Shown: positions 10,512 through 47,900, counted from the stretch's first letter. The stretch: DNA of 64,000 nucleotides from Verrucomicrobiia bacterium (GCA_963664225.1 OY760937.1:4480001-4544000); one strand, 5' to 3'. Notes: generated by a model not told the origin, from the sequence alone. Numbers and translations: made by a program.

Positions 10512-10658
10512 GGCATTCTCATTAGCAAATCCTGTGCCCGTTGTCATCGTGCGAATCAACGGCCCCACGGCCTATTCAGGCCATGGAGACCGCAGATCGG
10601 GATTTCCGTGCTGCCCGTGAGGGAGCTGAAAATGACTCACTAGCAGCGCCACTGGCGC

Positions 10659-12168: not shown

Positions 12169-15100
12169 TTATCCGCCGCGTCGGTTCTCCTCAAACATTT
12201 CGACTGGCATCGGATGCTCCAGAAGCCAAACCATCTGGATCGGTCGCTCGGATTGGTGGCTGACGTAATCGGATGGTCCGAGGTATGTGAACGGAGCCGT
12301 GACCCCATTCACTTTCTTCAGTGATCGAACGAAGAAAAGCATCGTGTAGCCGCGTTCCTTGTGGTGGACAAGATTCTGACCAGTCTCGCTTGCGAGGCTC
12401 GTTTGCGATTGGCTTTCCCAATGCAACAACTCGCGACTGATAGGGTAGTCTTGATACATTGTGCTTGGAGAGAACTCTTTCTCCGTTTTCTGAAAGGTAA
12501 CCAATGAGACGATGGTTTTTATGTTTGGGAAGTGAAGCCAGCCAACGCCCGTGACACCCGCAGTCTCAAAGGTTGCTCCACCAAGCGCTGCTTTAATTTC
12601 ATCACTCCCGTAAGTGGCATGCAGTTCCAGCGGACATGGAAACGGGAGGTCAAGAGGTTTGCTTCCAACACAGGACTCATCGGCTGACCATTCCAACACT
12701 TCTTCAAGATCGCGTAGCACTGATGGATTCCGGGCAGCCCTCTGGAAGGATTCCTCGATATTCGCAATTCCCAACTTATGGCCCGGTTGTCCCCAGAGTC
12801 GATAGTGGGTGAGAACTGCAGAGTCTCCGGCCTCTGCGAGCGCTGCTTCCGGGTTTCCTGCTCTCAGATAAGTGACGACCTTCCGTAATCGAGCGATCTC
12901 GCGTGGTCCGGAAGTCTGCGCTGCGCTGATGAGTGAGTCCTTCAAGCGACCGATATCGGGGTCGGCCGGGATTTCGGTGAGACGGGCGCTAGCTTTCCAC
13001 TGAGACCAAGTCTTTCTGGAGAGGAGCGTTTCAGGTTCGTAGTCGTGAAAACGGACAAAGTTTCCGAATGTCAGTTGCTGCTGAGCTTCACTTTCAAACG
13101 ATTCCAATCGGTCAGGAACTTGATCAGCCAGATTGCGTAGGTTCTCGCGGATATTGGCCAACACATAATCACGTGCTAACCGGTCGAGTTGAATGCTGCA
13201 ACCGGCAGGTAGGTGTGGAAATTCCATTTCCACCTCCCGCAGGATATTGAACCGCCGCTTGCTTAGCAGAGCTTTAAGCTTGCGGTCTATTCGGTATTTG
13301 CGATGCGCCTGTCCAACGAAGTCCAGGACTGTCAGGCAATCCTTCTCGGGTGAATGACGCAGACCGCGGCCTAATTGCTGAAGGAACACAGTCAGACTTT
13401 CCGTGGGCCGAAGAAACAGAACGGTATTGACCTCCGGAACGTCGAGACCCTCGTTGAGCACATCCCGAGTAAAGAGGAAGCGGATCTTGCCGGCGCGAAA
13501 ATCATTCATTAAAGCCGTTCGGTCATCCGTGAGTGTTTCGCCAACCAACACTGCGGAAGTAATCCCACGCTCATTGAACTTTTCGGCCATGAATTCCGCG
13601 TGACGTACGGATACGCAAAATCCAATGCCGCGAACTCGGTCTAAATATGGCTCGTATCGGAGCAAAGAGCTGAGGACAACATCCACGCGCTGGAGAGCGA
13701 CAGCATGTGCGCCTGTGAAAACTTTCTCCAACTCTGCAACATCGTATTTTCCACTCCGCCAGAACTGGTCTCCTGCCAATGAAACGGGATCTGCAACGCC
13801 GAAGTAGTGGAATGGGCATAGGAGCTTTTCTTCCAACGCCTCGGGCAGTCGGATTTCGGCAGCGAAATGATTGTCAAAATCTGCTGCAACACTCGCACCA
13901 TCCATACGTTCTGGAGTTGCCGTTAATCCAAGAAGAATACGTGGATTGAATTGATCAAATATCGCTCGATAACTGGCAGCGGGACCGTGATGCACCTCAT
14001 CCACAATAATGAAGTCGAAAAAATCGGCTCCGACTTGCTCCCACAAGCGCCGAGTTCCGAGCATGTCCACCGAGCAAAATAGATGGTCGAAACGCGTAGC
14101 GACGTGGGGACCGCCCAGCAGTTCACCGAAATCTGGCGTTCGAAGCACCATGCGGAACATTGCGGCTGCTTGTTCCAAAATTTCGCGTCGATGCGCTACA
14201 AACAACAACCGGGCTTGGCGTTGATTGCTCAAATAGAACCGTTTGAAGTCGAATGCCGCGACGACCGTTTTTCCAGTTCCAGTTGCCGCAACGATGAGGT
14301 TCCTCCATCGGTTATGAACGCTGCGTTCAATTGCCAAAGCGTCGAGAATACGTTCCTGAAATGGATGGGGCGTCATGTCCACCAACAACGTGGAAATGAA
14401 GCCATTCTTACGACCCTGCTGAATCGCATCCCTCAGCACCATGGGTTCATCTGGATTGAATGGAATGAACTCGCGGCTGTTCCAGTACGTTTCAAACTCC
14501 GCTTTGAATTTCTCCAGAATGTGGGGCAGATCCTGATTTGTGATTTTCAGATTCCATTCCAACCCACTGGTCATCGCCGCATGTGACATGTTGGCAGAGC
14601 CAATGTATGCAGTCGAGAAACCGCTGTTGCGTTTGAAATGATATGCCTTTGCATGGAGGCGTGTTCGTGTGGTGTCGTAGGAAATGCGAATCGATACATT
14701 TGGAAGACGGGCCAGCCATTCGATAGCTTCTGGATCCGATGCGCCCATGTAGGAAGTCGTGATGATTCGTACAGGGACACCGCGACCAGCAGCTTCCTCA
14801 AACGCTGGCATCAAAAGTCGAAGCCCGGACCATTTAATGAAGGACACGAGCAAATCCACATAGTCCGCCGAGTGCATCTCGCTACCCAATTCATGGACGA
14901 GCTGTGGGTCGGATGGCGAGCCAGTGAACAAACTGCTTTCTGTGAGAGGCGTTTCAGGCCGTGGCAAGGCTCCTTGCGCGTAATGCGGAGGAGTAATTTC
15001 AAGGAGCACAGGTTTGTCAGAGGAAACGAGACGTCTGTTTTGAAGAAAAGCCGACGACGGACTACCTGCAATTCGCTCAATAATGTCATTGCACAGCCGC

Positions 15101-15294
15101 ATCCGTGTGGCTGTATCACTTTCAAGACGCAGAGCCTTCACTAACAGCTTCGATAGAAAAGCGGCATAGCGTGCCGGTTCTTCCTCTGAGTCGAGTTTAC
15201 CAAAAACCGAACGTAACTCCGGGTGTCGATCAAGAATGGATTGTAGATCCTCGTCAAGGAGCGCTTCATAGATGCCTTGGGCAGGGATTGTCAT
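12169..15294 (-). CDS. PLD nuclease - SF2 helicase - DUF3427 protein (SauUSI-like modification-dependent restriction endonuclease)
   Basis: LHAKAYHF...AYIGSANMS (PLD); ATGTGKT, DEVHH, GLTATPER, LQQLGRGLR (SF2); FSPSTMYQDYPISRELLHWESQS (DUF3427). Confidence 0.88.
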   Translation of the reverse strand: MTIPAQGIYEALLDEDLQSILDRHPELRSVFGKLDSEEEPARYAAFLSKLLVKALRLESDTATRMRLCNDIIERIAGSPSSAFLQNRRLVSSDKPVLLEITPPHYAQGALPRPETPLTESSLFTGSPSDPQLVHELGSEMHSADYVDLLVSFIKWSGLRLLMPAFEEAAGRGVPVRIITTSYMGASDPEAIEWLARLPNVSIRISYDTTRTRLHAKAYHFKRNSGFSTAYIGSANMSHAAMTSGLEWNLKITNQDLPHILEKFKAEFETYWNSREFIPFNPDEPMVLRDAIQQGRKNGFISTLLVDMTPHPFQERILDALAIERSVHNRWRNLIVAATGTGKTVVAAFDFKRFYLSNQRQARLLFVAHRREILEQAAAMFRMVLRTPDFGELLGGPHVATRFDHLFCSVDMLGTRRLWEQVGADFFDFIIVDEVHHGPAASYRAIFDQFNPRILLGLTATPERMDGASVAADFDNHFAAEIRLPEALEEKLLCPFHYFGVADPVSLAGDQFWRSGKYDVAELEKVFTGAHAVALQRVDVVLSSLLRYEPYLDRVRGIGFCVSVRHAEFMAEKFNERGITSAVLVGETLTDDRTALMNDFRAGKIRFLFTRDVLNEGLDVPEVNTVLFLRPTESLTVFLQQLGRGLRHSPEKDCLTVLDFVGQAHRKYRIDRKLKALLSKRRFNILREVEMEFPHLPAGCSIQLDRLARDYVLANIRENLRNLADQVPDRLESFESEAQQQLTFGNFVRFHDYEPETLLSRKTWSQWKASARLTEIPADPDIGRLKDSLISAAQTSGPREIARLRKVVTYLRAGNPEAALAEAGDSAVLTHYRLWGQPGHKLGIANIEESFQRAARNPSVLRDLEEVLEWSADESCVGSKPLDLPFPCPLELHATYGSDEIKAALGGATFETAGVTGVGWLHFPNIKTIVSLVTFQKTEKEFSPSTMYQDYPISRELLHWESQSQTSLASETGQNLVHHKERGYTMLFFVRSLKKVNGVTAPFTYLGPSDYVSHQSERPIQMVWLLEHPMPVEMFEENRRGG

Positions 15295-18333: not shown

Positions 18334-18539
18334 TGCGCCTTCTTGGAACCATGCATTTTCAGGGTTGGCGACCGTTCATCCTTTTGAGCAAAGTTTTTCA
18401 TTGCGGACAGGCGTTGTCGAAGGGAAAAGCGTCAGATTAAAGGATCAGAGCAATAACTCGCAAGTCGATGCTGCGAAGGGAGGAAACGTGGGAAGACCTC
18501 CGATGGTTTGACAGGCAACCCGCCAAGACCGGCTTTCAT

Positions 18540-18988
18540 TTAAAATCGCCACTTTTAACAACACGTTTGCATTGCCAATACAATAAGAAAACATAATGAC
18601 AATATATGCCATACTATTGGCACGATACGTGTAGCGCATCAGAAGGTGAAAAAAGTAGTCTGGCGCGCATGTATATAAATCGCATAAAAGCCTGCTATTA
18701 CTGGCCAATAGCAGCATCATGGCAGCATGACGAGAATGATGATACATACAAAATAAAAGTTTTAAAAAGCAATATAAAATAAAAAATTAAAAAACAAATA
18801 TGTCCCGTTTTGAAGCGTAATATTCCAACAATAAGACACTATAATGTTACAGTTACCATTAATCGGTGTCTGGCTGAAGGCTGTCTTTGCTTATGCGTGA
18901 TATTACAAAGTCTGCTTCCAGATGACTCATTTCCGGCTCCTGTGATTGAACAACCGATAACCACCCATAACTCTTCAACACCACTGTT
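18540..18988 (+). promoter_or_regulatory. AT-rich upstream region of the hydrogenase cluster
   Basis: Long A/T tracts (about 18745-18800) against GC-rich flanking genes; no credible CDS. Confidence 0.5.
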
Positions 18989-19960
18989 ATGAATATAACC
19001 CGACGAAGTTTTCTAAGTTACTGCACCCTGTCCGCAGCGGCGCTTGGCCTGGATGCGCACAAATTGCGTTTCCTTTCAGAGGCCCTGGCCAATCCCAGCG
19101 CGCCAACGGTCATCTGGCTCATTGGGGCCTCCTGCAACGGCTGCTCAGTGTCGTTGCTCAATCGTTTTTCCGACAAGGCCGGCGAGCCTGCGGATGTGGC
19201 GGGAGTGCTGACCGGCGCGATCAACCTGGTTTATCATCCAGTCATCATGGCGGCGGCGGGTGAAACTGCCGTGTCGGCTCTCAAGCAGGCCTATAACCGG
19301 GGCAACTATGTTCTGGTGGTCGAAGGGGCGATACCCACGGCTTTCGGCGGCTACACTTGCGGAGTCTGGAACTACAACGGCCAGGACGTCACAATGCAGC
19401 AGGCGGTCCAGGAATTGACCGCCCGGGCTCTGGCCACCGTATGCGTGGGCACCTGCGCGAGTTTCGGCGGCATTCCGGCCTCAGGTTCGAATCCCACGGC
19501 CGCAATGGGCGTGCATCAATTTACGGGTCGGCCCACCATCAATCTCTCAGGGTGTCCGGTCAATCCCGATTGGATCGTCTGGGCGGTGGTGCAATTGTTG
19601 ACGGGCACCCCGGTCACGCTGGATGCGGATGGCCGTCCCTCCGCGCTTTACACCACGAGCTTCAGCGGGGCCGCCGAAGCTGCCATCATCCATGACAAGT
19701 GTCCCCGCAATCCGGCCAACACCGGCACGCTTGAGGCGGTCAATTTCGGGGAAAACGGCCATTGTTTGAAGGCCCTGGGCTGCCGTGGACCGGCCACCAA
19801 GTCGCGCTGTCAGGCGGCCTGGAATGGAATCGGAGGCCATGTGGCCCCGCAACTGCACCCGGGCCACTGGTGCATTGAGGCCAACGCCCCCTGCCAGGGC
19901 TGCGTTGAAAAGACCTTCCCGGGATCCCAACCGTTCCACGAGCCCTACATCCCGGCCTAA
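18989..19960 (+). CDS. [NiFe] hydrogenase small subunit, Tat-exported, group 1 (1a-like)
   Basis: TRRSFL Tat motif; WLIGASCNGCSVSLL, GTCASFGGIP, SGCP (proximal cluster); HDKC...CLKALGC (distal); RC...WNG...WC...PCQGC (medial); no C-terminal TM helix. Confidence 0.93.
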   Translation: MNITRRSFLSYCTLSAAALGLDAHKLRFLSEALANPSAPTVIWLIGASCNGCSVSLLNRFSDKAGEPADVAGVLTGAINLVYHPVIMAAAGETAVSALKQAYNRGNYVLVVEGAIPTAFGGYTCGVWNYNGQDVTMQQAVQELTARALATVCVGTCASFGGIPASGSNPTAAMGVHQFTGRPTINLSGCPVNPDWIVWAVVQLLTGTPVTLDADGRPSALYTTSFSGAAEAAIIHDKCPRNPANTGTLEAVNFGENGHCLKALGCRGPATKSRCQAAWNGIGGHVAPQLHPGHWCIEANAPCQGCVEKTFPGSQPFHEPYIPA

Positions 19961-20023
19961 ACACCGCCATCGCAAATCAATTCATCCAACACCAACACAT
20001 TTAACCGCAATACAGGAATTACC

Positions 20024-21487
20024 ATGCCAGTCATTACTGCCGCAATAGACCCGATCACCCGCATCGAAGGGCACATGAAGGTCGAGGTCAAAATCGACAC
20101 CATAAACGGCGTTCAACAAGTCGTTGACGCCAGCGCCATCGGAACGCTGTTTCGCGGTTTCGAGAAACTGCTCGAGGGCCGTGCGCCCCGGGACGCCACA
20201 ATCATCACCTCCCGCATCTGTGGAGTGTGCCCCACTTCACACGCCATGGCTTCCGCGCTGGCGCTGGATAGCGCCTATGGTGTCAATGGGGACACACCCA
20301 GCAGAACGGCCTCCCGTTTGCTGAGAAATCTGGTGCATGGCGCATGCTTCCTGGAGTCGCACATCCTGCACTTCTATCTTCTATCGTTGCCGGACTATAT
20401 CTCCGGGGTGCCGATGGCGCCCTGGCTGCCCGGTTGGGAAGTGGGAAAACGATTTGATACCGCGACGGTGAATCGGTTCACAGGCAATTTCCTGGCCGCG
20501 ATCACCGCGCGTCGAAACGCCCATGAAATGGGCGCCATCTATGGCGGCAAACTGCCGCATTCCCCCGCCTATATCGGTGGTGGCGGTTTTACCTCCATTG
20601 CCTCGAACGCCAGCACCACCGCCTTTCAGGCCTATCTGACCGACCTGCTGAACTTCATTCAAACCAAATACATTCCGGATGCGGAGTTGCTGGCCAATCT
20701 CTACAGCGATTATTTTCTGCTGGGCAGGGGCTATGGAAGCCTCATGGCTTATGGCGTGTTCGAACAGGACAACTCCACCAGCCCACAACTGCTCCTGAAA
20801 CGGGGCCGTGTGGTGAACGGTACCTCCACAGTCCAGGCGGTCGATGTCTCACAAATCACGGAGCAACTTCGCTATTCCTGGTATGCCAGTGCCGATAATC
20901 AGAATCCCGCCGTCGAAGACACGGTGGCCCAATACCCGAAAGCCGAGGCCTATTCCTGGCTCAAGGCGCCCCGGTATGGTGGCGCGCCCTATGAAGTGGG
21001 TCCGCTGGCCCGCATGACCGTCAATGGCGATTACACCAACGGCGTTTCCGTGATGGACCGGCATCTGGCCCGGGCTCGTGAGGCGCTCAAGATCGCCCAG
21101 GCCATGCAGGCGTGGCTCAACGCGCTGACATCGGGCCAAAGCGCGTACACGGATGCACCCAAACCGGCGAGTGCCACCGCCATGGGTTTAACCGAGGCGC
21201 CGCGCGGGGCCTTGGGCCACTGGCTCCAGGTATCCAACAGCACGATCTCCAAATATCAGATCGTCACCCCAACCTGCTGGAATGTCTCGCCCAAGGACAG
21301 CTCCAACCAGCATGGGCCTCTGGAGCAGGCACTCATCGGCCTGCCCGTGGTCAACATCGACAAGCCCATCGAGGTATTGCGCGTGGTGCACTCATTCGAC
21401 CCGTGTCTGGACTGTGCGACGCACGTAACCCGGGCGGAGCCGGGCGCCAGGGTGTTCGTTCCAGGTGGATTGCCGGTGAAAAACTGA
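20024..21487 (+). CDS. [NiFe] hydrogenase large subunit
   Basis: DPITRIEGH; L1 RICGVCP; EAPRGALGHW; L2 SFDPCLDCATH followed by a 20-aa C-terminal extension. Confidence 0.95.
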   Translation: MPVITAAIDPITRIEGHMKVEVKIDTINGVQQVVDASAIGTLFRGFEKLLEGRAPRDATIITSRICGVCPTSHAMASALALDSAYGVNGDTPSRTASRLLRNLVHGACFLESHILHFYLLSLPDYISGVPMAPWLPGWEVGKRFDTATVNRFTGNFLAAITARRNAHEMGAIYGGKLPHSPAYIGGGGFTSIASNASTTAFQAYLTDLLNFIQTKYIPDAELLANLYSDYFLLGRGYGSLMAYGVFEQDNSTSPQLLLKRGRVVNGTSTVQAVDVSQITEQLRYSWYASADNQNPAVEDTVAQYPKAEAYSWLKAPRYGGAPYEVGPLARMTVNGDYTNGVSVMDRHLARAREALKIAQAMQAWLNALTSGQSAYTDAPKPASATAMGLTEAPRGALGHWLQVSNSTISKYQIVTPTCWNVSPKDSSNQHGPLEQALIGLPVVNIDKPIEVLRVVHSFDPCLDCATHVTRAEPGARVFVPGGLPVKN

Positions 21488-21508
21488 TTAATCACCAGGA
21501 ATCACCCT

Positions 21509-22051
21509 ATGAAGCAAGAAATGGCGAATCAGTTCATGCCTCAACACTCCCGAAAGGGGGAGCCGTCTCGTTTCCTGATTGCCGGCGTGGGAAACGAATT
21601 GCTTTGCGACGATGGCGTGGGAATCCATGCGATCCGGGAATTGCAGCGTGAACCCATTCCCGGAGTGACGATGGTGGATTTGGGCACGGCCATCCTCCAC
21701 GGTCTCGGCTTCCTGGAAGCGGCCGACCGGGTGCTGGTCATCGACGCAGCCAAAGGGGGCCAGGCTCCGGGCACCATTTACCTCTTTGAAGCGGGCGTGA
21801 ATACTCAGGCCCAACCCATGACCTCTGTCCATTCAATGGGCCTGCGCGAAGCCGCCGGCTTGTTGATGGCGGGTCAGGCTCCCCCGATGACCGTGCTGGG
21901 CGTTGAACCGGAATCCTTCAAATACTCCATGTCCCTGTCGGATCCGGTGCAGGCGGCCGTGGCACGCGTGGTTTCCCTGGCCCGGGAGACCATCACGGCA
22001 TGGCGACAGGCCGAACGAAATGAAGAAATGGCTGTTCCAGCCGAAGTATAA
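21509..22051 (+). CDS. Hydrogenase maturation endopeptidase (HyaD/HybD/HycI family)
   Basis: GVGNELLCDDGVG, VDLGT, VIDAA, SVHSMGL, GVEP. Confidence 0.93.
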   Translation: MKQEMANQFMPQHSRKGEPSRFLIAGVGNELLCDDGVGIHAIRELQREPIPGVTMVDLGTAILHGLGFLEAADRVLVIDAAKGGQAPGTIYLFEAGVNTQAQPMTSVHSMGLREAAGLLMAGQAPPMTVLGVEPESFKYSMSLSDPVQAAVARVVSLARETITAWRQAERNEEMAVPAEV

Positions 22052-22095
22052 AACGAACTAAAAACCACTCCAATCCCTTTAACCCAAGACCTACT

Positions 22096-25000
22096 GTGAA
22101 AAATATTCTGAAACTGATGGGCGCCATATTACTCGGCGCAATACTGACCCAGGGGGTCAGTGCGGCAACGACCGATGGCACTGCCACCCTCAATGTGACG
22201 CTGACGGATCCTGCGGGCAATTACAACCGGCGTGTCGATGCGTTTTGGATCACCGATGGCACGGGCCGATTCATTGTGACCGTGCGCAAAGACGCGGCGT
22301 CTGAGCAGGCCTACCTCTACCAATGGAACACCGCCCGCGGGACATCCACGGTGGTGGATGGCTACAGCGGCGCCACAATCACCACCTGGACGCCGATGTC
22401 CGTGCCTTGGAATGGCCGGGACGCCAACAATGTGCTGGTGCCCGATGGCAACTACCGGTTTTACGCTGAGTTTACCGATCATAACGGACAAGGTTGGTGG
22501 ACCACCAACGGGCTAGCCTTCACCAAAGGCGCCAGCGCCTACACCACCAACTATCCCGCGCTGCAATACCTGACCGCCATGTCCGTCACTTATGCCCCGG
22601 TGGCCGTGGTGCATGACATTGCGGTGACCAGCATGACTCCCAGCACGGCTGTGGCCAACACCACCGTGGCAGTACAGGTTGGAGTGACCAATCGAACCGC
22701 CAATGCGGAAACCTTTAGCGTGATCCTGAGCAACGCCACCAGCGGGGTTGTCGTCGGCACACAGACGGTCACCTCTCTGGCTGGCAACGCGGCCTCCAGC
22801 GTAACCTTCCAATGGAATACCGCCGGTTTGCAGGGCAATTACGCCTTGCGGGCAACGGCGGGTCCTGTGACTGGCGAAACCAGCACTGCGGATAATAGCT
22901 ACACCAACACCGTTGCCGTGCAACCCCTGGTCCACGATATCGCCGTCACCAGCATGGCTCCCAATACGGCCCAGGCGAACACCACTGTTTCGGTTCAAGT
23001 TGGCGTAACGAATAAGACCGCCAATGCGGAGTCTTTTAGCGTGACACTGAGCAACGTCACCACCGCAACCCTCATCGGCACACAGACCGTCGGCGCGTTG
23101 GCGGGAAATGCAACCACAAGCGCCGCATTCGCATGGAATACCGCTGGTTTGCAGGGTAATTACGTTCTGCGTGCGGTGGCCGGGCCCGTGACTGGCGAAA
23201 CGATTACTGCGAACAACAGTTTCACGAACACTGTCGCTGTGCAGTCTGTGGCTCATGATATCGCGGTGACCAGCCTATCGCCCAGCCTGGCGCTTCCAGG
23301 CACAAACGTCACCATCACTGTAGGGGTCACCAACCTCACAATAAACACCGAAACCTTCTCGGTAGTGCTGAGCAATCTCACCTCCGCCTCAAGGATCGGC
23401 ACGCAGCAGATTACCGCTCTGGCCGGCAACAGGACTACCAGTGCAACCTTCCAGTGGAGCACCACCAACCTGTCTGGCAATTATGTCCTGCAGGCCAGCG
23501 CCGGTCCAGTGACCGGGGAAACCGCCACGACTGACAATACGCGCACCAGTACGGTGGCTGTAAGGAGCTTGATTCATGATGTGGCCATCGCCGCCATAAA
23601 CGTCCCGGCCCTGGTTTCACCCAACAGCACGGCCACTATTTCGGTGCTGGCAACCAATGCCGGGGAAACCGCCGAGTCGTTTGGGGTGCAATTATTTGAC
23701 GACACCGACGCACGCGCCATCGGCGGGACCTACCAGGTCAGCAATCTGGCAGTGGCAGCCACCCTGAACGTGCCTTTCACCTGGAGCACCACCAACAGTT
23801 CGCTCGGCGTCCACACCCTGAGGGCCGTGGCCGTCGCGGTCACTGGTGAAACCGCTCTTGCCAACAATACCAAATCCGCAGCCGTGACCGTGCAGACGGT
23901 CAACCATGATGTGGCGATTGCCACAATTCTTGCGCCAACGTTCGTGGCACCCAATGGGACCGCCACAATTTCCGTGGTGGCCACAAACCTCGGCGCGGTG
24001 GCCGAATCCTTTGGTGTTCAACTGCTCGACGACACCGATGCGCGCACCATTGGCGCCACTTACCAAGTCACCAATCTGGCCGTCGCTGCGGCAGTCAATA
24101 TACCCTTCACCTGGAAGGCCACCAACAGTTCCCTCGGCTATCACATGTTGCGCGCCGTGGCCAATCCCGTGTCTGGCGAAACGACCCTGGCCAATAACAC
24201 CAATACCGTCAGGGTTGCGGTCGCGACAGGCTTGGGCACCAACACCTACATCGCCAAAGCCAGTCCCTGGCGCTATAATGACCAGGGACTGGACCTGACA
24301 CAGACCCCGTGGCGCCTACCCGATTATTATGACGCCACCTGGAGCCTGGGTGCCGCGCCATTGGGTTACAGCGCGAACAGCAGCTTAACCAATCTCACCA
24401 CCCGGCTGAGCTGGGGACCGGTCGCGACAAACAAATACCCCACCTATTATCTGCGGCGGGAATTCTATGCGGACGTTTTGCCCGCTGCGATGACCCTTAA
24501 CATGCGATGCGTGGACGGAGCCATCCTCTACCTCAACGGTGTTGAGCTGACCCGTCAAAATATCGCCTGGTCCATGGGCTATTCGGACCTTGCGGATGCG
24601 CCGGTGACGGGAACAAACCGTTATACTTACGTCTCGACGAGCCTGGTTCCCACCAATGTGGTTCTGGGCCGAAACGTCCTGGCGGTGGAATTGCATCGGG
24701 CGGACCTGACGGGTTCAGGCCTGGCGTTTGACCTCGAAATGATTGGAACCGCGCCTCAAGCCACTGCCAAACACCTGGTGGACACGATTAGCATGACCAC
24801 CTCCGGGAGCGCGATTCTGGGCGACCAACTGCCGGTATCGGTCACCGTGACCAACCGTGGAAATGTCACAGAGTCCGTGCAAGTGTTTCTCAAGAACAAT
24901 ACGACAGGCCAGATTATTGGTTCTCAAACCATTACCAGCCTGGTTCCGGGAGGCACCACTTCGATCAATTTCGACTGGGGCACTCTGGGGGCCAATAATG

Positions 25001-27243
25001 GCGCAAACAGCCTGACGGCCTACACGGTCGTGGGTGGGGTCACCAACATGGCTGGTTCCTATACCAACACCGCACTCATCAGCGGTACGGGTTTTGTCAC
25101 CAATCCCGTCAACACAACTGCAACCATCGGGGGCCGGTGTTTCGCGATGGCAACCGCTTCCGGCCACTTGCTCGTTGGTTCCGGAGCGACACTCGAAATA
25201 TGGGATGTCAGCCATCCATCCTCACCCGTCCGGCAAGGGGCCGTGCGTTTGCCAGGATTGATTCAGGATATTGCCGCCACCGAGTCTTACGCTTACGTCG
25301 CCTGCGGCTCGGCCGGCGTCCAGTTCGTGGATCTGCATTCGTCCTCCCAGCCCATTCATCGACGCACGCTCAATACCGCCGGCAATGCCTACTCAGTGGC
25401 GGTGAGCGGAAGCTATTTGTATGTGGCTGACGGCAATGCGGGCCTGCGCATCGTCAACATTTCGAGTCCCTCCAGTCCCTCGATGGCTGGAGTGTATTAC
25501 ACCTCGGGACCGGCCCGGGCCGTTGCCGTTTCCAACAGCCGTGCCTACCTCCTCGACCAGCAGCAGGGTTTGTTGATTCTTGATGTGTCGAGCCCAAGAA
25601 CTCCGTCGCTCCTGGGTGTTTACCCCAACTTCGATGCGGGCGTGGCCCTGGCGGTTTCCAGTTCGTATGCATACCTGCTGGATGCCAATAATCACTTCGC
25701 CATCGTCAACGTCTCCACTCCGGCGAGTCCGACATTAAGCGGTTCGCTCATTTTGACGAACATGATCGGTCAGAGCATTGCCGTGAATGGTTCACGAGCT
25801 TATGTTTCGGCCGGAGTCAGCGGTTTGGTGACCATCAATGTCTCCACACCCTCGGCTCCCACGATCGTTTCAACCACTGCCATGCCGGGTGAAGCGGGGG
25901 AAATAGCGCGTTCCAGCTCGACCCTCTATGTGGCTGACGGCTTTGCCGGATTCCAGGTGTTCAATGTCTCTTCATCGTCGGCACCATCGCTCCAGGCGGA
26001 TTACCCGACTGCGTTGCGGGCAACCGATGTGGCCATCACCAACAATCTGGCGTATGTGGCTGCGGGTGAAAGCGGTTTGCGAATCTTCTCGCTGACCAAT
26101 GCCGGTTCGCCAGCGCTCCTCGGCCGGTTCACCGGAGCGGCCAACGCCCGCGCGGTGGCCGTTTCAGGTTCCCGCGCTTATGTGGGTGACGGGCCCAATG
26201 GTTTGAAAATTGTCAATGTCGCCAACCCGGCGGCCCCCACGTTATTGGGCAGCTATACGAACTCGAAGCTGGGCAGCATCCGTGATGTCGGAGTATCTGG
26301 TTCGCTGGTGGTGGTGAGCGATGGACGAACCATGCTCCTGCTGGACGCTTCCACCTCATCGAGGCCAACCCTGGTGGGCACGTATAACACACCGGCCTTC
26401 GCGTTCGCGATGACCGTAAACAACAACCGCGCCTATGTGGCTTGCGGCAAGGCCGGCCTGGTGATTCTCAATGTTTCTCGCAGTTCATTCGCCACCCTGG
26501 GCAGCCTGGTCATGCCTTCGCTGGTAAACGACGTTTCCGTTGCCGGCACCTCAGCCTATCTTTCAGGACCCGTCGGAGGCTGGTGGACCGTCGATGTTTC
26601 GACTCCGTCGGCGCCCCATCTGGTGCAGAGCGCCACCGGTCAGGGAGCCATCATGGGTCTGGCCGCTCTGGGCACCAACGTCGCAGTCCTGACCACGACC
26701 AATTATCTGGTTACAATGAACGCTTCGGTGCCATTGAGGCCGGTATCCATGAAATCCTTCGGACCGTTGGTTGGCGCGATCCGGCTGGCCGTCAGCTCGA
26801 ACTTCGTGGCCTCTGCAGAAGATGAAGCAGGCTTGGGCCTGTTTGCCGTGGCTTTTGGCGGCGGATCGAGCCGGAGCCTGGAACTGGATTCGTTCGTGGC
26901 AAAGAGTGTGGGTGCTGAAAGCGGCCCAGTGCTGCTCGGCGCATCACTGGCTGTAGCTAATCCTGCGGCGGGCACTTTAACGCCTGCCGCGCAGGTTTCG
27001 CCAGCCTCGACTGCCACGGATGCCGCATCGACGAATGCGAACTTCACACTGCACTGGCAGAGCGTGGCTGGTCAGACTTACACCGTCTATCGTTCGACAG
27101 ATCTCAAGGGTGGATTCACCCCATTGCAGACTCACATACCGGCGACGCCGCCAACGAACGTCTTTATCGATCCTGTCGCGCATGATGCGGCCTTCTATAT
27201 GATCGTGATCGAGGAAACGGGTGCCGCGCCAGCGAATCAATAA
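22096..27243 (+). CDS. 1715-aa secreted protein: DUF2271-like flavinylation domain + 5 CARDB/Ig-like repeats + jelly-roll domain + LVIVD repeats + C-terminal domain
   Basis: GTG start and signal peptide; AFWITDGTGRFIVTV...VDGYSGAT...WNGRDANNVLVPDGNY; HD(I/V)A(V/I) repeats; PWRYND...LGY...TYYLRREF; many V.VSG..AYVA.G..GL.I.(D/N)VS.P..P repeats. Confidence 0.85.
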   Translation: MKNILKLMGAILLGAILTQGVSAATTDGTATLNVTLTDPAGNYNRRVDAFWITDGTGRFIVTVRKDAASEQAYLYQWNTARGTSTVVDGYSGATITTWTPMSVPWNGRDANNVLVPDGNYRFYAEFTDHNGQGWWTTNGLAFTKGASAYTTNYPALQYLTAMSVTYAPVAVVHDIAVTSMTPSTAVANTTVAVQVGVTNRTANAETFSVILSNATSGVVVGTQTVTSLAGNAASSVTFQWNTAGLQGNYALRATAGPVTGETSTADNSYTNTVAVQPLVHDIAVTSMAPNTAQANTTVSVQVGVTNKTANAESFSVTLSNVTTATLIGTQTVGALAGNATTSAAFAWNTAGLQGNYVLRAVAGPVTGETITANNSFTNTVAVQSVAHDIAVTSLSPSLALPGTNVTITVGVTNLTINTETFSVVLSNLTSASRIGTQQITALAGNRTTSATFQWSTTNLSGNYVLQASAGPVTGETATTDNTRTSTVAVRSLIHDVAIAAINVPALVSPNSTATISVLATNAGETAESFGVQLFDDTDARAIGGTYQVSNLAVAATLNVPFTWSTTNSSLGVHTLRAVAVAVTGETALANNTKSAAVTVQTVNHDVAIATILAPTFVAPNGTATISVVATNLGAVAESFGVQLLDDTDARTIGATYQVTNLAVAAAVNIPFTWKATNSSLGYHMLRAVANPVSGETTLANNTNTVRVAVATGLGTNTYIAKASPWRYNDQGLDLTQTPWRLPDYYDATWSLGAAPLGYSANSSLTNLTTRLSWGPVATNKYPTYYLRREFYADVLPAAMTLNMRCVDGAILYLNGVELTRQNIAWSMGYSDLADAPVTGTNRYTYVSTSLVPTNVVLGRNVLAVELHRADLTGSGLAFDLEMIGTAPQATAKHLVDTISMTTSGSAILGDQLPVSVTVTNRGNVTESVQVFLKNNTTGQIIGSQTITSLVPGGTTSINFDWGTLGANNGANSLTAYTVVGGVTNMAGSYTNTALISGTGFVTNPVNTTATIGGRCFAMATASGHLLVGSGATLEIWDVSHPSSPVRQGAVRLPGLIQDIAATESYAYVACGSAGVQFVDLHSSSQPIHRRTLNTAGNAYSVAVSGSYLYVADGNAGLRIVNISSPSSPSMAGVYYTSGPARAVAVSNSRAYLLDQQQGLLILDVSSPRTPSLLGVYPNFDAGVALAVSSSYAYLLDANNHFAIVNVSTPASPTLSGSLILTNMIGQSIAVNGSRAYVSAGVSGLVTINVSTPSAPTIVSTTAMPGEAGEIARSSSTLYVADGFAGFQVFNVSSSSAPSLQADYPTALRATDVAITNNLAYVAAGESGLRIFSLTNAGSPALLGRFTGAANARAVAVSGSRAYVGDGPNGLKIVNVANPAAPTLLGSYTNSKLGSIRDVGVSGSLVVVSDGRTMLLLDASTSSRPTLVGTYNTPAFAFAMTVNNNRAYVACGKAGLVILNVSRSSFATLGSLVMPSLVNDVSVAGTSAYLSGPVGGWWTVDVSTPSAPHLVQSATGQGAIMGLAALGTNVAVLTTTNYLVTMNASVPLRPVSMKSFGPLVGAIRLAVSSNFVASAEDEAGLGLFAVAFGGGSSRSLELDSFVAKSVGAESGPVLLGASLAVANPAAGTLTPAAQVSPASTATDAASTNANFTLHWQSVAGQTYTVYRSTDLKGGFTPLQTHIPATPPTNVFIDPVAHDAAFYMIVIEETGAAPANQ
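22612..24230 (+). repeat. Five intragenic ~107-110-aa CARDB-like repeats
   Basis: HD(I/V)A codons at 22612, 22933, 23254, 23575, 23905 (spacings 321, 321, 321, 330 bp). Confidence 0.85.
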
Positions 27244-27280
27244 AACTTGCGACGCACGAATAACACGTTGAACCTGTAGC

Positions 27281-28396
27281 ATGCGAGCTTCAGGTCTCAA
27301 CATGAACCGGTGTACACGGAGCGCGGGACGCATGACCCGCAGCTCCGTTCAATTCATCCTCCTGCTTGGATGGGTGTCAATTCTGGCACCCATCCTTTCC
27401 CTCCCGGTACGTGGTGCCGATTTTCCGCTCATTTCCTGGCAGGGCCAGACCATGGGGTCCACGTACACCGTGAAAATCGTGGACGCCCAACTTGCCGAAC
27501 CGACAGTGGAGGCCTTAAAGCTTGAAATCGAGCGGTGCCTGAAGGAAGTCAATCGTCAGGTGTCGCATTACCAACCGGAGAGTGAATTATCACGGTTCAA
27601 CCGTTCACCTGCGAACACCCCTTTTAAAGCCTCCCCGGGTTTCTTCCGCGTCCTCCAGCATAGCCTCGAATTGAACCGTCAATCGCAAGGCGCCTTTGAT
27701 CCCACGCTGGGACCACTCATCGACCTGTGGGGATTTGGCGCGAAGACTAACAACAAGGCAGTGCCGACCGACGCGCAAATCTCGGAGGCGAAGAAACTCT
27801 ACGGTTGCCAGCACCTCTCTCTGACCGCCAACGGGGAAATCCTCAAAGACATTCCGGAACTGCGCCTAAACCTCAGTTCCGCCGGCAAAGGTTTTGGCAC
27901 CGATGAAATGGCGCGCGTTCTTCGAGCACATGGCTTGACGAACATTTACGTCTCCATCAGTGGCGATGTCTTCACCCAGGGACACAATGCCCAAGGCAAA
28001 AAATGGCAGGTGGGCATTTCAGCTCCAATGCCCGATTGGAGTCCCGGAGATCCACTGGTCACGGTGCTCTCTGTATCGGGACAGGCCGTTTCCACATCGG
28101 GCGATTATCAGAAATATTTGATCGACGCCCAGGGACGGCGTCTTGGCCATATCTTCGATCCGAAAACCGGCTGGCCTGTTCAGCATAATCTGGCGGGCGT
28201 CTCGGTGGTGGCCGGGGATTGCATGACTTCCAGTTCCCTGGCCACGACACTCTTTGTGCTTGGGCCGGATGAAGGACTTCGATTCATTGAATCCCGGACC
28301 AATGCCGCCGCACTATTCGTGGTCCAGGATGCCGATCATAAATTCCAATCGATCCCCAGTTCTCGGTTTAAGGTCATGACCGGATATCAGCCGTGA
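27281..28396 (+). CDS. apbE: FAD:protein FMN transferase (ApbE/Ftp family)
   Basis: GQTMGSTYTVK, SELSRFN, GAFDPTLGPLIDLWGFG, LNLSSAGKG, VSTSGDY, HIFDPKTG. Start could be 27302 or 27332. Confidence 0.92.
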   Translation: MRASGLNMNRCTRSAGRMTRSSVQFILLLGWVSILAPILSLPVRGADFPLISWQGQTMGSTYTVKIVDAQLAEPTVEALKLEIERCLKEVNRQVSHYQPESELSRFNRSPANTPFKASPGFFRVLQHSLELNRQSQGAFDPTLGPLIDLWGFGAKTNNKAVPTDAQISEAKKLYGCQHLSLTANGEILKDIPELRLNLSSAGKGFGTDEMARVLRAHGLTNIYVSISGDVFTQGHNAQGKKWQVGISAPMPDWSPGDPLVTVLSVSGQAVSTSGDYQKYLIDAQGRRLGHIFDPKTGWPVQHNLAGVSVVAGDCMTSSSLATTLFVLGPDEGLRFIESRTNAAALFVVQDADHKFQSIPSSRFKVMTGYQP

Positions 28397-28479
28397 AGTT
28401 TGGAACTGCGTTGGCCACCTGATTCACATTCTGATTCAACTTGTGCGCATCGGGAGGATGAGGCACGTTTTAGGAAAGC

Positions 28480-29445
28480 ATGAATCGCCGTGAATTTATC
28501 CAAAGCGTTGCGGCTGGACTGGCCGTTGCACCCCTGCTGACCTCTGCCGCACCCGTTGGCATCCCCACACGCTCGCTGGGCCGCACCGGCATCAAAGTTC
28601 CCATTATTGGCTTCGGCTCCGGGAGCCGTTTCCTGATGTATCAAAAGGACGAAGACGCCTGGGAGGCGCTCAACCGGGCCATCGACCTGGGCATAACTTA
28701 CATCGACACCGCGCATGCCTATGGGAATGGCAAGAGCGAGGAGCGCGTTGGACATGTGATGGCCACGCGGCGCAAGGAAGTGGTTCTGGCCACGAAAATT
28801 CCCGGGCGCACGGCGGACCAGGCCCGGCGGCAAATTGAGCTGAGCCTGAAGCGTCTTCAAACCGACCATCTGGATGTGCTGCATATTCACGACCTGAAAG
28901 GCGATAAAGACATTGAGGCCATTGAGGCGCGCGGCGGTGTGCTCGAGGCGTTGCATGAGGCCCGTGATCAGAAAATCACCCGCGCCATTGGGATCACCTG
29001 TCACGCCAATCCCGCCGGTCTGAAGACCATGCTCGAACGCCATGATTTCGATTGCACACAGATGGCCTTGAATGCGGGATTGGCCCGCATGGCGGATCTT
29101 CCGGGCGGCATGAAGGCGACACTGGCCGGGGAGGGAAGTTTCGAGCGACTCGCCTTGCCGGTGGCCACGCGAAAGCACATGGGTGTCATCGCCATGAAAG
29201 TATTCGGTCAGGAGCAACTCCTGGGGGCGGCATCGGTGGAAAACCTGCTGGCGTATGTGCTTTCCCTGCCGATCAGCCTTGCGAGCCTGGGCATGCCCCG
29301 ATTGGAGCATATCGAGAAAAACGCCTCCCTTGCATGCACCAGCAAACGCATGTCCGGCAGCCAGCGTCGGAAGCTTTCGGAAACCATCGAATCAGAGAAA
29401 AAGCTGGCCATGATGCGCTTCTTTGAGGCCCATCAGGATTGCTGA
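28480..29445 (+). CDS. Tat-signal aldo/keto reductase
   Basis: MNRREF; RSLGRTG, IDTAHAYGNGKSEERVG, VVLATK, SLKRLQTDHLDVLHIH, GVIAMK. Confidence 0.9.
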   Translation: MNRREFIQSVAAGLAVAPLLTSAAPVGIPTRSLGRTGIKVPIIGFGSGSRFLMYQKDEDAWEALNRAIDLGITYIDTAHAYGNGKSEERVGHVMATRRKEVVLATKIPGRTADQARRQIELSLKRLQTDHLDVLHIHDLKGDKDIEAIEARGGVLEALHEARDQKITRAIGITCHANPAGLKTMLERHDFDCTQMALNAGLARMADLPGGMKATLAGEGSFERLALPVATRKHMGVIAMKVFGQEQLLGAASVENLLAYVLSLPISLASLGMPRLEHIEKNASLACTSKRMSGSQRRKLSETIESEKKLAMMRFFEAHQDC

Positions 29446-29670
29446 TCGTACTCTGCTGAATTTGGCAAATTGGTTAATGTGCCAGAGCTAAAGGGCCAAA
29501 CTCGATGCGGCCCTGTTCGCTTGGAAATGACCTTGATCCTGAAACAGAACAGGCACCCGGCTGACTGTTGAAAGGATTGGTCAAGTGCTTCCTGAGGCGC
29601 GCTTTTCGTCCACGAATTGCACTTGCCATGTGCGTCATGGCCCGATTCAATCAACGGACCCATCCAACAA

Positions 29671-30975
29671 ATGACTGCCGAATCGAGTTTTGAAGCCAGG
29701 ACCTATGCCAAAGTCGATTGGCGCCTGATTCCGTTTCTGTTCCTTTGTTACATCCTGGCTTATCTGGACCGGGTGAACATCGGATTCGCCAAGCTGCAAA
29801 TGCTCAAGGATCTCGAATTGAGCGATGCGGCGTTTGCCACGGGCGCGGGGATTTTCTTCATCGGATATTTTGTTTTCGAGGTTCCGAGCAACGTGCTTTT
29901 GAGACGATTTGGCGCCCGAACATGGATAGCCCGGATCATGATTTCCTGGGGGATCATCTCCTCGGCGATGATGTTTGTGCGCGGCGAGACCGCCTTTTAC
30001 GCCATGCGCATGCTGCTCGGATTTGCGGAGGCGGGCTTTTTCCCGGGAATCATTTTTTATCTGACGTTGTGGTATCCTTCCCGGTTGCGCTCGACCCGGA
30101 CGGCGCTCTTTGTTTCGGCCATCGCCGTTTCAGGCGTGCTGGGCAATCCCATTTCGGGGCTGATCATGGACAAGCTTTCGGGAACAGCGGGGCTGGCTGG
30201 CTGGCAATGGCTGTTCCTGGCCGAGGGCATTCCCTCGATCCTCGTGGGAATCTGTGTCTTGTTCTATCTGGATAGCAGCATTGTGGAAGCCAGATGGTTG
30301 AGCGCGGATGAAAAGGCGCTGCTGGCCAAAAACCTCGAGATCGAAGATCGCCATAAGGACCAGGTCCGGTTGTTGGACGCCTTGAAGTCAGGAAAAGTTT
30401 ACGCCCTGGCGGCCATTTATTTCACGCTGATGATCGGGCTTTATGGTATTTCATTCTGGCTTCCGACACTGGTCAAGGCCTTTGGCGTGAAGGGCTATCT
30501 GAATACCGGCCTGATCATCGCCATTCCTTACGCGGTGGCGGTGGTGGGGATGATCCTCTTGAGCCGCAATTCCGACCGAACTGGAGAGCGGCGGATGCAT
30601 TACGTTCTTAACGTGACCGCCGGTGGGATCGGGCTGATTCTCAGCGGCGTTTTTGCGGCACAGCCAGTTCTGGCCATTATTTTTCTGTCGATGGGAACGT
30701 TGGGAGTGGTTGGTTCCATGCCATTGTTCTGGCCTGTGCCTTCCACGTTCCTTGCCGGAACTGCAGCGGCGGCGGGCATTGGGGTGGTTAATTCCGTTGG
30801 CAACCTTGGTGGCTACATCGGTCCGAACGTTCCCATCTGGGTCAGGCATTGGACGTCTGATCCTTCGGGAGCTCTCTACGTCTTTGCGGTATCGCTCTTT
30901 GTGGGGGCTGCCATGGCCTATTTTGTTTTTCCCCGGAGTCCTGGGATTCAATCCAGCCGAGCCGAGCCGGAATGA
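29671..30975 (+). CDS. MFS transporter, anion:cation symporter family (tartrate/phthalate permease-like)
   Basis: AYLDRVNIGFA, FEVPSN, RMLLGFAEAGFFPG, GWQWLFLAEGIP; about 12 TM segments. Confidence 0.92.
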   Translation: MTAESSFEARTYAKVDWRLIPFLFLCYILAYLDRVNIGFAKLQMLKDLELSDAAFATGAGIFFIGYFVFEVPSNVLLRRFGARTWIARIMISWGIISSAMMFVRGETAFYAMRMLLGFAEAGFFPGIIFYLTLWYPSRLRSTRTALFVSAIAVSGVLGNPISGLIMDKLSGTAGLAGWQWLFLAEGIPSILVGICVLFYLDSSIVEARWLSADEKALLAKNLEIEDRHKDQVRLLDALKSGKVYALAAIYFTLMIGLYGISFWLPTLVKAFGVKGYLNTGLIIAIPYAVAVVGMILLSRNSDRTGERRMHYVLNVTAGGIGLILSGVFAAQPVLAIIFLSMGTLGVVGSMPLFWPVPSTFLAGTAAAAGIGVVNSVGNLGGYIGPNVPIWVRHWTSDPSGALYVFAVSLFVGAAMAYFVFPRSPGIQSSRAEPE

Positions 30976-40645: not shown

Positions 40646-40921
40646 TTAGCTCGATTTGTCGGCGAGATGCGCGCTGACCGCCTGGGCAATGGTGGAGACG
40701 TTTTGGAGGATCTGACGGGCGATTTCCGGACTGGGGATCTTGAGGCCGTAGGTTTTATCGAGTGCGACAACCAATTGCAGGGCGTCCACCGAGTCCAAAC
40801 CCAGGCTTCCCGGACCAAACAGGAGTTGTTCGTCGCCGATTTCGTCGTCGGTCACCTGCAGCATGAGGTTTTCCACCATCATACGCTTGATTTGCCGCTT
40901 ATAATCCAATTCCGTTTCCAT
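40646..40921 (-). CDS. Acyl carrier protein
   Basis: 91 aa, acidic, LGLDSVDAL phosphopantetheine site. Confidence 0.92.
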   Translation of the reverse strand: METELDYKRQIKRMMVENLMLQVTDDEIGDEQLLFGPGSLGLDSVDALQLVVALDKTYGLKIPSPEIARQILQNVSTIAQAVSAHLADKSS

Positions 40922-41652
40922 CAGAGAATTCCACCGTCAATTTTCAGAACTGAGCCTGTGATATAGCCCGCTTCATCACAAGCCAAAAAGCGGATGGCTG
41001 CGGCGATTTCTTCGGGTTTGCCGAACCGCCGCATGGGAATGCGCGATTGCAGGGACTGACGCTCCGGGCCGGTCATTTTCGAGAGCACGTCCGTTTCGAT
41101 GTATCCTGGGCAGAGGGCGTTGACGGTGATTCCAATGCGGGCCATTTCCTTGGCCAGGGATTGGGTCAAAGCCACAACACCGGCCTTTGCGGCGGCATAG
41201 TTGGTCTGGCCTGCCGGTGGAAGCAGCGCGCTCAGGGAAGAGATGTTGATGATCCGGCCTTTGCGCTGGCTGATCATGGCGGGTAACACCGCCTGGCAAC
41301 CGTAAAAAACACCGTTGAGATTTGTGTCCAAAACCTGCCGCCAACTCGCTGGGGTCATGGTGCCCAGGAGCGCGTCATCGTGCGTCCCGGCATTGTTCAC
41401 CAGCACATCCACACGCGTGTCTGCGTCGAGTAATGCATCAACGGCGCCCTTCCATGCCTCTGGAGAGGTCACGTCCAGCGGCACGCATCGGCATCGGCCC
41501 GGATACTCGCGAGTCAGTTGATCCGCGCGTTCCCGCCGGGAACGGACGGCAAGCCAGATGGAGTTCTCCGGGCGCTCCGCAAGGAACGCCTTTGCGACTG
41601 CAATGCCCAGTCCGCCGTTGGCACCGGTAATTAAAATGACGCGTTTATTCAT
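40921..41652 (-). CDS. fabG: 3-oxoacyl-ACP reductase (FabG-like SDR)
   Basis: TGANGGLG, LVNNAG, NYAAAK, PGYIET, IDGG. Confidence 0.9.
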   Translation of the reverse strand: MNKRVILITGANGGLGIAVAKAFLAERPENSIWLAVRSRRERADQLTREYPGRCRCVPLDVTSPEAWKGAVDALLDADTRVDVLVNNAGTHDDALLGTMTPASWRQVLDTNLNGVFYGCQAVLPAMISQRKGRIINISSLSALLPPAGQTNYAAAKAGVVALTQSLAKEMARIGITVNALCPGYIETDVLSKMTGPERQSLQSRIPMRRFGKPEEIAAAIRFLACDEAGYITGSVLKIDGGIL

Positions 41653-46654: not shown

Positions 46655-46791
46655 CGTTTTTCATGCCCCAACGTTTGAATTTGATGCAATGCGCCACATC
46701 TAGGACTGAGGTTCTAGCCGTGAACACGTCCCAGGCGCAACATTAAATGGATTCTCTTCAATTATATCGGCCAATCCTGTAGATTGGGGTT

Positions 46792-47885: not shown

Positions 47886-47900
47886 GAACTGGCGATTCGT

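Follow-up and report, generated by a model that had tools for sequence, protein, structure and literature searches.

To our knowledge, the partner that takes up electrons from any characterised group 1 [NiFe] hydrogenase contains haem or iron-sulfur clusters. The locus described here lies in a 64,000-nucleotide stretch of the genome of a Verrucomicrobiia bacterium (GCA_963664225.1 OY760937.1:4480001-4544000; hereafter the window), and in it the genes for an exported hydrogenase and its maturation protease are followed by a gene for a giant secreted protein, which begins with a domain of the DUF2271 type, and by a gene for ApbE, the transferase that attaches flavin mononucleotide (FMN) to such domains. 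The [NiFeSe] hydrogenases have no cytochrome gene in their operons, and the cytochrome c3 that accepts their electrons is encoded outside the operon. One of them, HysAB of Desulfovibrio vulgaris (group 1a; 5jsu, 2wpn), supplies the best solved match for both window subunits and shares with them a twin-arginine (Tat) signal, a small subunit without an anchor, an extra medial-cluster cysteine and a dedicated protease gene. The window enzyme differs from HysAB in having cysteine for selenocysteine, in scoring below the NCBIfam cut-offs and in the absence of a lipobox-like N-terminus on the large subunit, and its partner gene encodes a flavinylatable giant protein, whereas the cytochrome c3 partner of HysAB is encoded elsewhere.

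Hydrogenases that dispense with cytochromes have a precedent in the quinone-independent complex of Dehalococcoides, in which a periplasm-facing group 1 enzyme passes electrons to protein partners without cytochromes or quinones; those partners are iron-sulfur and molybdoenzyme-like proteins in a membrane complex, with no flavinylated protein at the hydrogenase step. In the flavin-based extracellular electron transfer of Gram-positive bacteria (PplA, FmnB/ApbE), an ApbE-type enzyme likewise flavinylates a secreted electron carrier, but that carrier has FMN_bind domains and is fed from the quinone pool via membrane proteins, while the window protein has DUF2271 and its likely donor is a soluble hydrogenase.

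Nearer in composition are the clusters of DUF2271, ApbE and PepSY-like proteins described by Meheust et al. (2021; PMC8238504), which likewise place an extracytosolic DUF2271 protein with a motif of the [S/T]GA[S/T] type beside apbE. According to that survey, DUF2271 has been shown to be an ApbE substrate, the motif threonine is the attachment site in one member and its replacement by alanine abolishes flavinylation; DUF2271 is also linked to iron reduction, and large multi-domain flavinylated proteins are proposed as long-distance electron carriers. The DUF2271 proteins of those clusters are small, stand alone, are fed by a membrane PepSY-like protein and are tied to iron uptake, whereas in the window the domain is the tip of a 1715-aa protein, with a hydrogenase as neighbour and neither a PepSY-like protein nor DUF4198. 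The original prediction, made from the sequence of the window, knew of no description of this gene combination; the word 'hydrogenase' is absent from the main text of two flavinylation surveys (PMC8238504; 10.1101/2024.03.13.584918), and no paper on a hydrogenase with DUF2271/LVIVD and ApbE was found in full-text searches of the literature, although the large gene-cluster table of PMC8238504 might list such clusters. The components are of known kinds (a group 1 hydrogenase, ApbE and a DUF2271 substrate), and their combination is new as far as the literature found.

A hydrogenase cassette shared among PVC bacteria

Recurrence of hydrogenase, DUF2271-led giant protein and ApbE in other genomes was the key test proposed for the original prediction, and it is seen in related genomes of the Planctomycetes-Verrucomicrobia-Chlamydiae (PVC) group. 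The sample of loci was drawn from 185,579 species, one genome each, which were scanned with an alignment of 16 large subunits, and it comprises the best 80 of 589 confirmed stretches (L001 to L080); gene order was read by tblastn with the window proteins and by phmmer on the open reading frames (ORFs) of each locus. Loci L001-L013, whose large subunits are 60-78% identical to that of the window, belong to Verrucomicrobiota, Lentisphaerota/Victivallales and Kiritimatiellota, and the PVC loci have in common a small-subunit gene followed by those for the large subunit, the protease and the giant protein. Thirteen operons are readable, that is, they continue past the protease gene or, in one L011 copy without a protease match, past the large-subunit gene; they come from L001-L009 and L011-L013 (two in L011), while L010 is cut inside the large-subunit gene. 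What comes immediately after the hydrogenase genes is, in 12 of these 13 operons, a DUF2271-like domain with CARDB repeats, and in the 12 the propeller and C-terminal domains described below are present as well, wherever the contig continues. ApbE lies directly 3' of the giant gene in the window and in five of the seven loci with at least 1 kb beyond that gene (L001, L002, L004, L009 and L013). The unit is a conserved four-to-five-gene cassette of PVC bacteria (Verrucomicrobiota, Lentisphaerota and Kiritimatiellota). More linked pairs may exist, since for six relatives of the giant protein the longest contig is identical in length to that of a listed large-subunit relative (11561, 23794, 9203, 353890, 266757 and 27601).

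The surroundings of the cassette are not conserved in this way. Pfam found no neighbour shared by the flanks of nine PVC loci, where the genes vary by locus and include glycosidases, tetratricopeptide-repeat and WD40 proteins, cell-division genes, two-component systems and TatC. No frame with two or more CxxCH motifs occurs in L001-L013, and Pfam detected no cytochrome b or iron-sulfur membrane module in the window or in the nine PVC loci with scanned flanks. A PepSY-like membrane protein and DUF4198 were likewise found neither among the scanned window ORFs nor in 11 related loci (Pfam).

Beyond the PVC loci, tblastn at E<=1e-3 found nothing in the 67 other hydrogenase loci (L014-L080) that matched the DUF2271-like domain, CARDB, the middle region, LVIVD, the C-terminal domain or ApbE. 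The nearest relative outside the group, L014 (Acidobacteriota, 53% identity), has upstream genes for a NarI-like membrane protein, an iron-sulfur protein and a Tat-signal Fer4_11 protein, which make up a conventional electron-transfer module. The large-subunit tree joins the window to L001, L002 and L009 (100/100), and the closest relatives of the window hydrogenase bear the source names Verrucomicrobiota, Kiritimatiellales and Pontiella.

Several loci have peculiarities of their own. One Lentisphaeraceae contig carries two back-to-back copies of the cassette (L011:2-4428, minus strand, and L011:8962-17103, plus strand), the second without a protease match. In L008, two DUF2202 (ferritin-like) genes (1023-2357) lie just upstream of the hydrogenase. 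In the acidobacterial locus L015 (779-2719) a 646-aa small subunit is fused C-terminally to Big_6 and CarboxypepD_reg immunoglobulin-like domains, another way of joining a hydrogenase to domains of the surface type.

Composition of the cassette

The six co-directional genes that the original prediction had placed at 18989-29445, with intergenic gaps of 63, 21, 44, 37 and 83 bp, were all recovered as described by ORF calling, on the plus strand (Table 1). Its statement that the cluster has no cytochrome, HybA/HybB or membrane-anchor gene was also borne out by a Pfam scan of 40 window ORFs, namely those of about 90 aa or more apart from ten other short ones. Across the same 40 ORFs there is no cytochrome, HybA/HybB, hyp or PepSY-like gene, no FMN_bind, Nqr or Rnf gene, and no other ApbE substrate family.

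Table 1. Positions of the cassette, its protein domains and its immediate neighbours in the window
Feature	Coordinates	Strand	Basis
AT-rich non-coding stretch, ~470 bp, 5' of small-subunit gene	18512-18988	.	Direct reading; no Rfam family
[NiFe] hydrogenase small subunit, 323 aa	18989-19960	+	Pfam Oxidored_q6 and NiFe_hyd_SSU_C
[NiFe] hydrogenase large subunit, 487 aa	20024-21487	+	Pfam NiFeSe_Hases, E 2e-109
Hydrogenase maturation endopeptidase	21509-22051	+	Pfam HycI, E 3e-17; TIGR00072, 121.7 bits (cut-off 47.45)
Giant secreted protein, 1715 aa	22096-27243	+	Pfam CARDB and LVIVD; orthologues directly 3' of hydrogenase genes elsewhere
Predicted Sec-type signal peptide, residues 1-23, end VSA/AT	22096-22164	+	Translation read by eye
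Divergent DUF2271 domain, residues 24-170, beta sandwich	22165-22605	+	Relatives, hhalign, AlphaFold2
Predicted ApbE flavinylation motif D88-G-Y-S-G-A-T94, FMN expected on T94	22357-22377	+	Position confirmed; conservation
Five tandem CARDB (immunoglobulin-like) repeats, residues 176-720	22621-24255	+	Pfam CARDB, 5 stretches, E 1.6e-29
Unassigned beta-rich domain and sixth CARDB-like repeat, residues 721-1000	24256-25095	+	CARDB, E 3e-4, in later part, the sole match
LVIVD-repeat region, residues ~1009-1584	25120-26847	+	Pfam LVIVD, E 2.7e-62
C-terminal beta-sandwich domain, residues 1650-1706	27043-27213	+	AlphaFold2; follows disordered linker
ApbE FAD:protein FMN transferase	27281-28396	+	Pfam ApbE (PF02424), 276.4 bits against 25.6, E 3e-82, positions 1-266 of 266
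Tat-signal aldo/keto reductase	28480-29445	+	Pfam Aldo_ket_red, E 1e-25; NRREF motif in translation

The translated small subunit begins MNITRRSFLSY, in which TRRSFL is a Tat signal whose R5 and R6 are invariant among 16 aligned small subunits. It aligns end to end with its closest solved relative, the [NiFeSe] small subunit of D. vulgaris (2wpn_A, E 1.8e-47); its C-terminus coincides with the Desulfovibrio one, and there is no membrane helix or anchor. The cysteines that ligate the iron-sulfur clusters are mostly invariant in the same alignment, including the extra one of WCIxxNxxCxGC, where the window sequence WCIEANAPCQGC pairs with WCVQ-NAVCIGC of 2wpn_A and so contains the fourth, invariant, cysteine of the medial cluster. 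This extra residue would make the medial cluster [4Fe-4S], giving three [4Fe-4S] clusters as in the [NiFeSe] type. Two of the related small subunits (L005:1022-1990 and L010:3030-4001) have CTGDS for CTGCS, with aspartate at the second cysteine of the proximal-cluster CxxC, which may represent an altered ligand.

The large subunit, whose best match in the PDB is 5jsu_B (E 5.9e-110), has both metal-site motifs, RICGVCPTSH and DPCLDCATH, the latter followed by a C-terminal extension of 20 residues. DPCLDCATH has cysteine at the position where selenocysteine defines the [NiFeSe]/HysAB enzymes, no in-frame stop occurs in 25 large-subunit sequences translated from the loci, and nothing resembling a lipobox is found at the N-terminus. 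The [NiFeSe] models of NCBIfam rank first yet miss their curated cut-offs (NF033181, 536.7 against 600; NF045518, 471.5 against 780), as does the best-scoring small-subunit family, NF045520 (209 against 470). The Tat signal on the small subunit, the two metal-site motifs, the C-terminal extension and the protease gene are all features of group 1, and we take the enzyme, by resemblance, to belong to group 1a. Judged by its sequence, it is a soluble, Tat-exported, cysteine-type member of the [NiFeSe]-like lineage.

The giant protein, of which the database version begins at M8 and has 1708 aa, was originally predicted to carry a DUF2271 domain. Taken alone, the window domain misses the gathering cut-off of Pfam: residues 1-185 match DUF2271 (PF10029) with E 0.0047 and 17.1 bits against 27.3, over profile positions 16-102 of 136, and also match FlgD_ig. 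Homology nevertheless emerges through its relatives and through comparison of profiles. Residues 24-170, when searched exhaustively, proved to have 1021 relatives at E<=0.001 (270 at E<=1e-10), and when the 82 of no more than 450 aa within the top 150 were scanned, the 68 longer ones being set aside, 78 matched DUF2271 at E<=0.01 and 66 reached the Pfam cut-off. By hhalign, a profile of 13 hydrogenase-linked domains matches one of 31 DUF2271 members over 148 columns (probability 100%, E 8.6e-58); these 31 were found with the query and so are not an independent set, though each passes the threshold of Pfam itself. A precomputed PF10029 label is attached to three giant relatives (P0277, P0283 and P0293). 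The AlphaFold2 model of the domain is a beta sandwich with high confidence (pLDDT 93.7, pTM 0.89), to which Foldseek found no close solved structure in the PDB, the best being the FlgD hook cap (E 8e-3, TM 0.39). The similarities indicate that the N-terminal domain is a divergent DUF2271.

Within this domain the motif D88-G-Y-S-G-A-T94 occupies the coordinates originally given for it, and in the hhalign alignment DGYSGAT falls on VDAITGAT of DUF2271 members. D88 and T94 are conserved in at least 90% of 78 aligned sequences, and the aspartate and final threonine are invariant in all 13 full-length hydrogenase-linked domains and kept in the truncated domain of L007 as well. Between these two residues there is some latitude: the linked motif reads DGYSGAT in the window, L002 and L009, DGFSGAT in L001, DAITGAT in L006 and L007, DG(I/V/T)TSAT in L012 (both domains), L013, L011 and L005, DGLSSAT in L004 and DGVATST in the second copy in L011. 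The glycine is often serine, including in L004 and L013, where ApbE adjoins. Among 174 related domains in the top 150 representatives, the strict form [ST]GA[ST] occurs in 90, the relaxed form [ST][GSA][APST][ST] in 150 and a terminal serine or threonine in 159, the exceptions being mostly FlgD-like repeats of very large repeat proteins. The invariance of aspartate and threonine in the 13 linked domains, together with retention of the motif in 150 of the 174 related ones, points to a flavinylation site under selection. Both the giant protein and ApbE have N-termini that look by eye like signal peptides, consistent with an extracytosolic location; in ApbE this is a hydrophobic segment in the translation. 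That apbE adjoins the giant gene, as originally proposed, is shown by the gap of 37 bp and by a full-length Pfam match.

A second SGAT in the giant protein, at residues 1029-1032, was rejected as a chance match inside a propeller blade: shuffling expects 0.96 occurrences against the two seen, and at this point the consensus of the family reads GAGAT and lacks a preceding aspartate. The wider family has variants of its own. The giant orthologue at L012:11934-16568 has two DUF2271-like domains (29-182 and 407-559), each with D-G-x-T-S-A-T, while P0123, P0132, P0135 and P0136 have three or four such domains each, every one with the motif, and may be multi-flavinylated proteins built on DUF2271 instead of FMN_bind. 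Many stand-alone relatives (among P0174-P0272) end in Por_Secre_tail, a type IX secretion sorting domain, which points to cell-surface DUF2271 flavoproteins in organisms of the Bacteroidota type.

The remainder of the giant protein is a succession of beta-rich domains, beginning with the CARDB repeats and a region (residues 721-1000) that is conserved in orthologues. The AlphaFold2 model of residues 1001-1715 (pLDDT 87.7) is continuously all-beta from about 1009 to 1584, followed by the linker and the C-terminal beta sandwich. Foldseek matched the LVIVD part of this model to tandem propellers, Utp21 (4nsx, E 1.5e-18) and PorZ (5m11, E 3.4e-18), the latter a surface protein that has a C-terminal domain in addition to its two propellers, and the region is accordingly modelled as a tandem double beta-propeller; no cofactor-bearing enzyme was among the top Foldseek matches of residues 1001-1715. 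The C-terminal domain, whose pattern W.S..G..Y.V..S..L is kept in orthologues, matched neither Pfam nor NCBIfam. There are four cysteines in the whole protein and no CxxCH; beyond the signal peptide it is free of hydrophobic segments, and no sorting-signal model of NCBIfam matched it. The same build, with DUF2271 first and LVIVD later, is found in 31 of the top 150 representatives, so that the family is a sizeable one.

The aldo/keto reductase had been counted as a member of the system, a claim that did not survive comparison, since none of the 80 loci gave a tblastn match to it. The major facilitator superfamily (MFS) transporter that follows was rejected as a component on the same ground, having no match in any of the 80; the glycosidase-like gene after it was also rejected. 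The reductase and the transporter, which is of the galactonate/4-hydroxyphenylacetate type, together span 28480-30975 on the 3' side of ApbE, and they fit the sugar-use genes further downstream.

The flavin as proposed electron acceptor, and competing explanations

The linkage of these genes suggests, with a little better than even probability in our estimation, that the flavin of the DUF2271 domain is the acceptor of hydrogenase electrons. ApbE would attach FMN to T94 after export, in the periplasm, where the soluble hydrogenase would dock on the giant protein and electrons from H2 would reach the tethered flavin by way of the distal [4Fe-4S] cluster. In other group 1 hydrogenases the corresponding role belongs to cytochrome c3, cytochrome b or HybA-type proteins; here the flavoprotein would fill it, and the rest of the giant protein, stalk and propellers, would space and bind the hydrogenase-flavin unit and so position it within the cell envelope, perhaps at the cell surface. 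The small subunit has no membrane anchor, and no other route for its electrons or its attachment is evident, both of which favour this proposal. From the flavin the electrons could go on to ferric iron, which has been proposed for other DUF2271 systems, to some different extracytosolic oxidant or to a second flavoprotein. Since H2 would be oxidised and the electrons apparently kept out of the cytoplasm, we consider a reductive service no less plausible than energy conservation; it might consist of the reduction of ferric iron or of another extracytosolic flavoprotein. A fuller version of the proposal, close to the one originally put forward, has FMN as the sole partner of the hydrogenase in a cytochrome-free complex, with the CARDB stalk and double propeller presenting the H2-charged flavin at the envelope or surface and reducing insoluble or external acceptors or another flavoprotein, such as a periplasmic flavin subunit of Rnf or Nqr; in all these particulars together it is unlikely to be right.

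Several observations weigh against the flavin as acceptor. The contact between hydrogenase and flavin, and the transfer of electrons between them, we infer from gene linkage; a single flavin needs a further acceptor; and, as the searches covered the window and the PVC loci, a cytochrome partner elsewhere in the genome is possible. The absence of a cytochrome from the cluster is weaker evidence than was first assumed, because [NiFeSe] operons are also without one. Two complete loci, L006 and L012, have no ApbE within about 5 kb on the 3' side of the giant gene or 10 kb upstream, and several orthologues have [ST]SAT, and one ATST, instead of [ST]GA[ST]. In L008, from the Kiritimatiellales, the partner is a 654-aa protein with its own signal peptide that consists of the propeller and C-terminal domain only, without DUF2271, and the conserved link may consequently run through the propeller rather than the flavin. 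The loci also share ancestry, so that 12 operons are not 12 independent events, and the PVC/acidobacterial backbone of the tree is poorly resolved.

The arrangement in L008 favours what we rank as the main competing explanation, namely that the double propeller and C-terminal domain tether the hydrogenase, its acceptor being a cytochrome c or other carrier encoded elsewhere, while the flavin has a separate or accessory role. L008 keeps just these two domains beside its hydrogenase, the modelled tandem propeller would be a typical protein-binding fold (PorZ is among its matches), and [NiFeSe]-type enzymes do use a cytochrome c3 encoded outside their operon. We nevertheless find the explanation doubtful, given that DUF2271 with its invariant aspartate and threonine is kept in 12 of the 13 readable operons, usually with ApbE adjoining, and that no PVC locus contains a cytochrome gene. 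Electrons might also flow the other way, from a membrane system encoded elsewhere to the flavin and thence to the hydrogenase, which would release H2 into the periplasm as an outlet for fermentation. The groups to which the relatives belong include fermenters, to judge by their names, and [NiFeSe]-type enzymes are good producers of H2 in vitro, but flavin potentials are generally too positive for H2 formation and Tat-exported group 1 enzymes are as a rule uptake enzymes. In known DUF2271 systems the electrons are supplied by membrane PepSY-like proteins, according to PMC8238504, yet no membrane electron-export gene is conserved near any of our loci, and a reverse flow therefore seems quite improbable.

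It is similarly hard to credit that the giant protein acts independently, as an adhesin or as a surface flavoprotein that reduces iron, sharing its regulation with the hydrogenase and having no direct interaction with it. CARDB and LVIVD are described by Pfam as typical of surface and adhesion proteins, and the link between DUF2271 and iron reduction reported in PMC8238504 would suit such a function; against this, the genes abut in the same order in three phyla, with all the other neighbours varying, and such genes are absent from the 67 other hydrogenase loci. Chance adjacency in one genome, for which one can say no more than that genes may be neighbours without being related, can be practically dismissed, being already refuted by a conserved order that recurs in 12 of 13 readable operons of different species. 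Reception of electrons by the DUF2271 flavin is the explanation that we prefer.

Surroundings of the cassette and implications

The AT-rich stretch that precedes the small-subunit gene is likely to be the promoter and regulatory region of the cassette. It contains a promoter-like match at 18555-18584 (10 of 12 positions), of a class that is not enriched (9 found against 6.0 expected in shuffled sequence), and inside the cluster the counts of intrinsic terminators and promoters are not above those in shuffles, which leaves the scan neutral on co-transcription. No RNA gene turned up when the whole window was scanned with Rfam and for tRNAs. The sole window frame with two CxxCH motifs (1057-1311, plus strand) was rejected as spurious, being antisense to a real 746-aa gene.

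Other loci of the window are of separate interest. At 6765-10568 (minus strand) is a 1267-aa protein of secreted type with lamin-tail, Laminin_G_3, CHB_HEX_C_1 and CotH kinase-like domains, and at 12169-15294 (minus strand) a 1041-aa protein combines PLD nuclease, ResIII helicase and DUF3427 domains and, in PADLOC, fits the model of a Type IV methyl-directed restriction enzyme (E 4e-197). A biosynthesis cluster of lipid type, mostly on the minus strand, occupies 40921-55091; it encodes a short-chain dehydrogenase, a ketoacyl synthase, a B12-binding radical SAM enzyme, a FabA-like dehydratase and a 1156-aa protein in which an MMPL transporter is fused to a lipid A-type acyltransferase, as well as, on the plus strand, an AMP-binding enzyme and a family 2 glycosyltransferase.

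If the flavin does receive the electrons of the hydrogenase, a dedicated and covalently flavinylated partner would be a new kind of hydrogenase wiring, and a flavin-based counterpart to the cytochrome wiring of other hydrogen oxidisers. It would also provide a defined electron donor for the ApbE/DUF2271 flavinylation systems, which are widespread and poorly understood. The compactness of the cassette, four to five genes with one cofactor-attachment enzyme beyond the usual maturation, would make it attractive for H2-driven biocatalysis. Many PVC bacteria of this kind are polysaccharide degraders in sediments, soils and guts, and an arrangement such as we propose could explain how PVC bacteria make use of a periplasmic hydrogenase without a neighbouring cytochrome.

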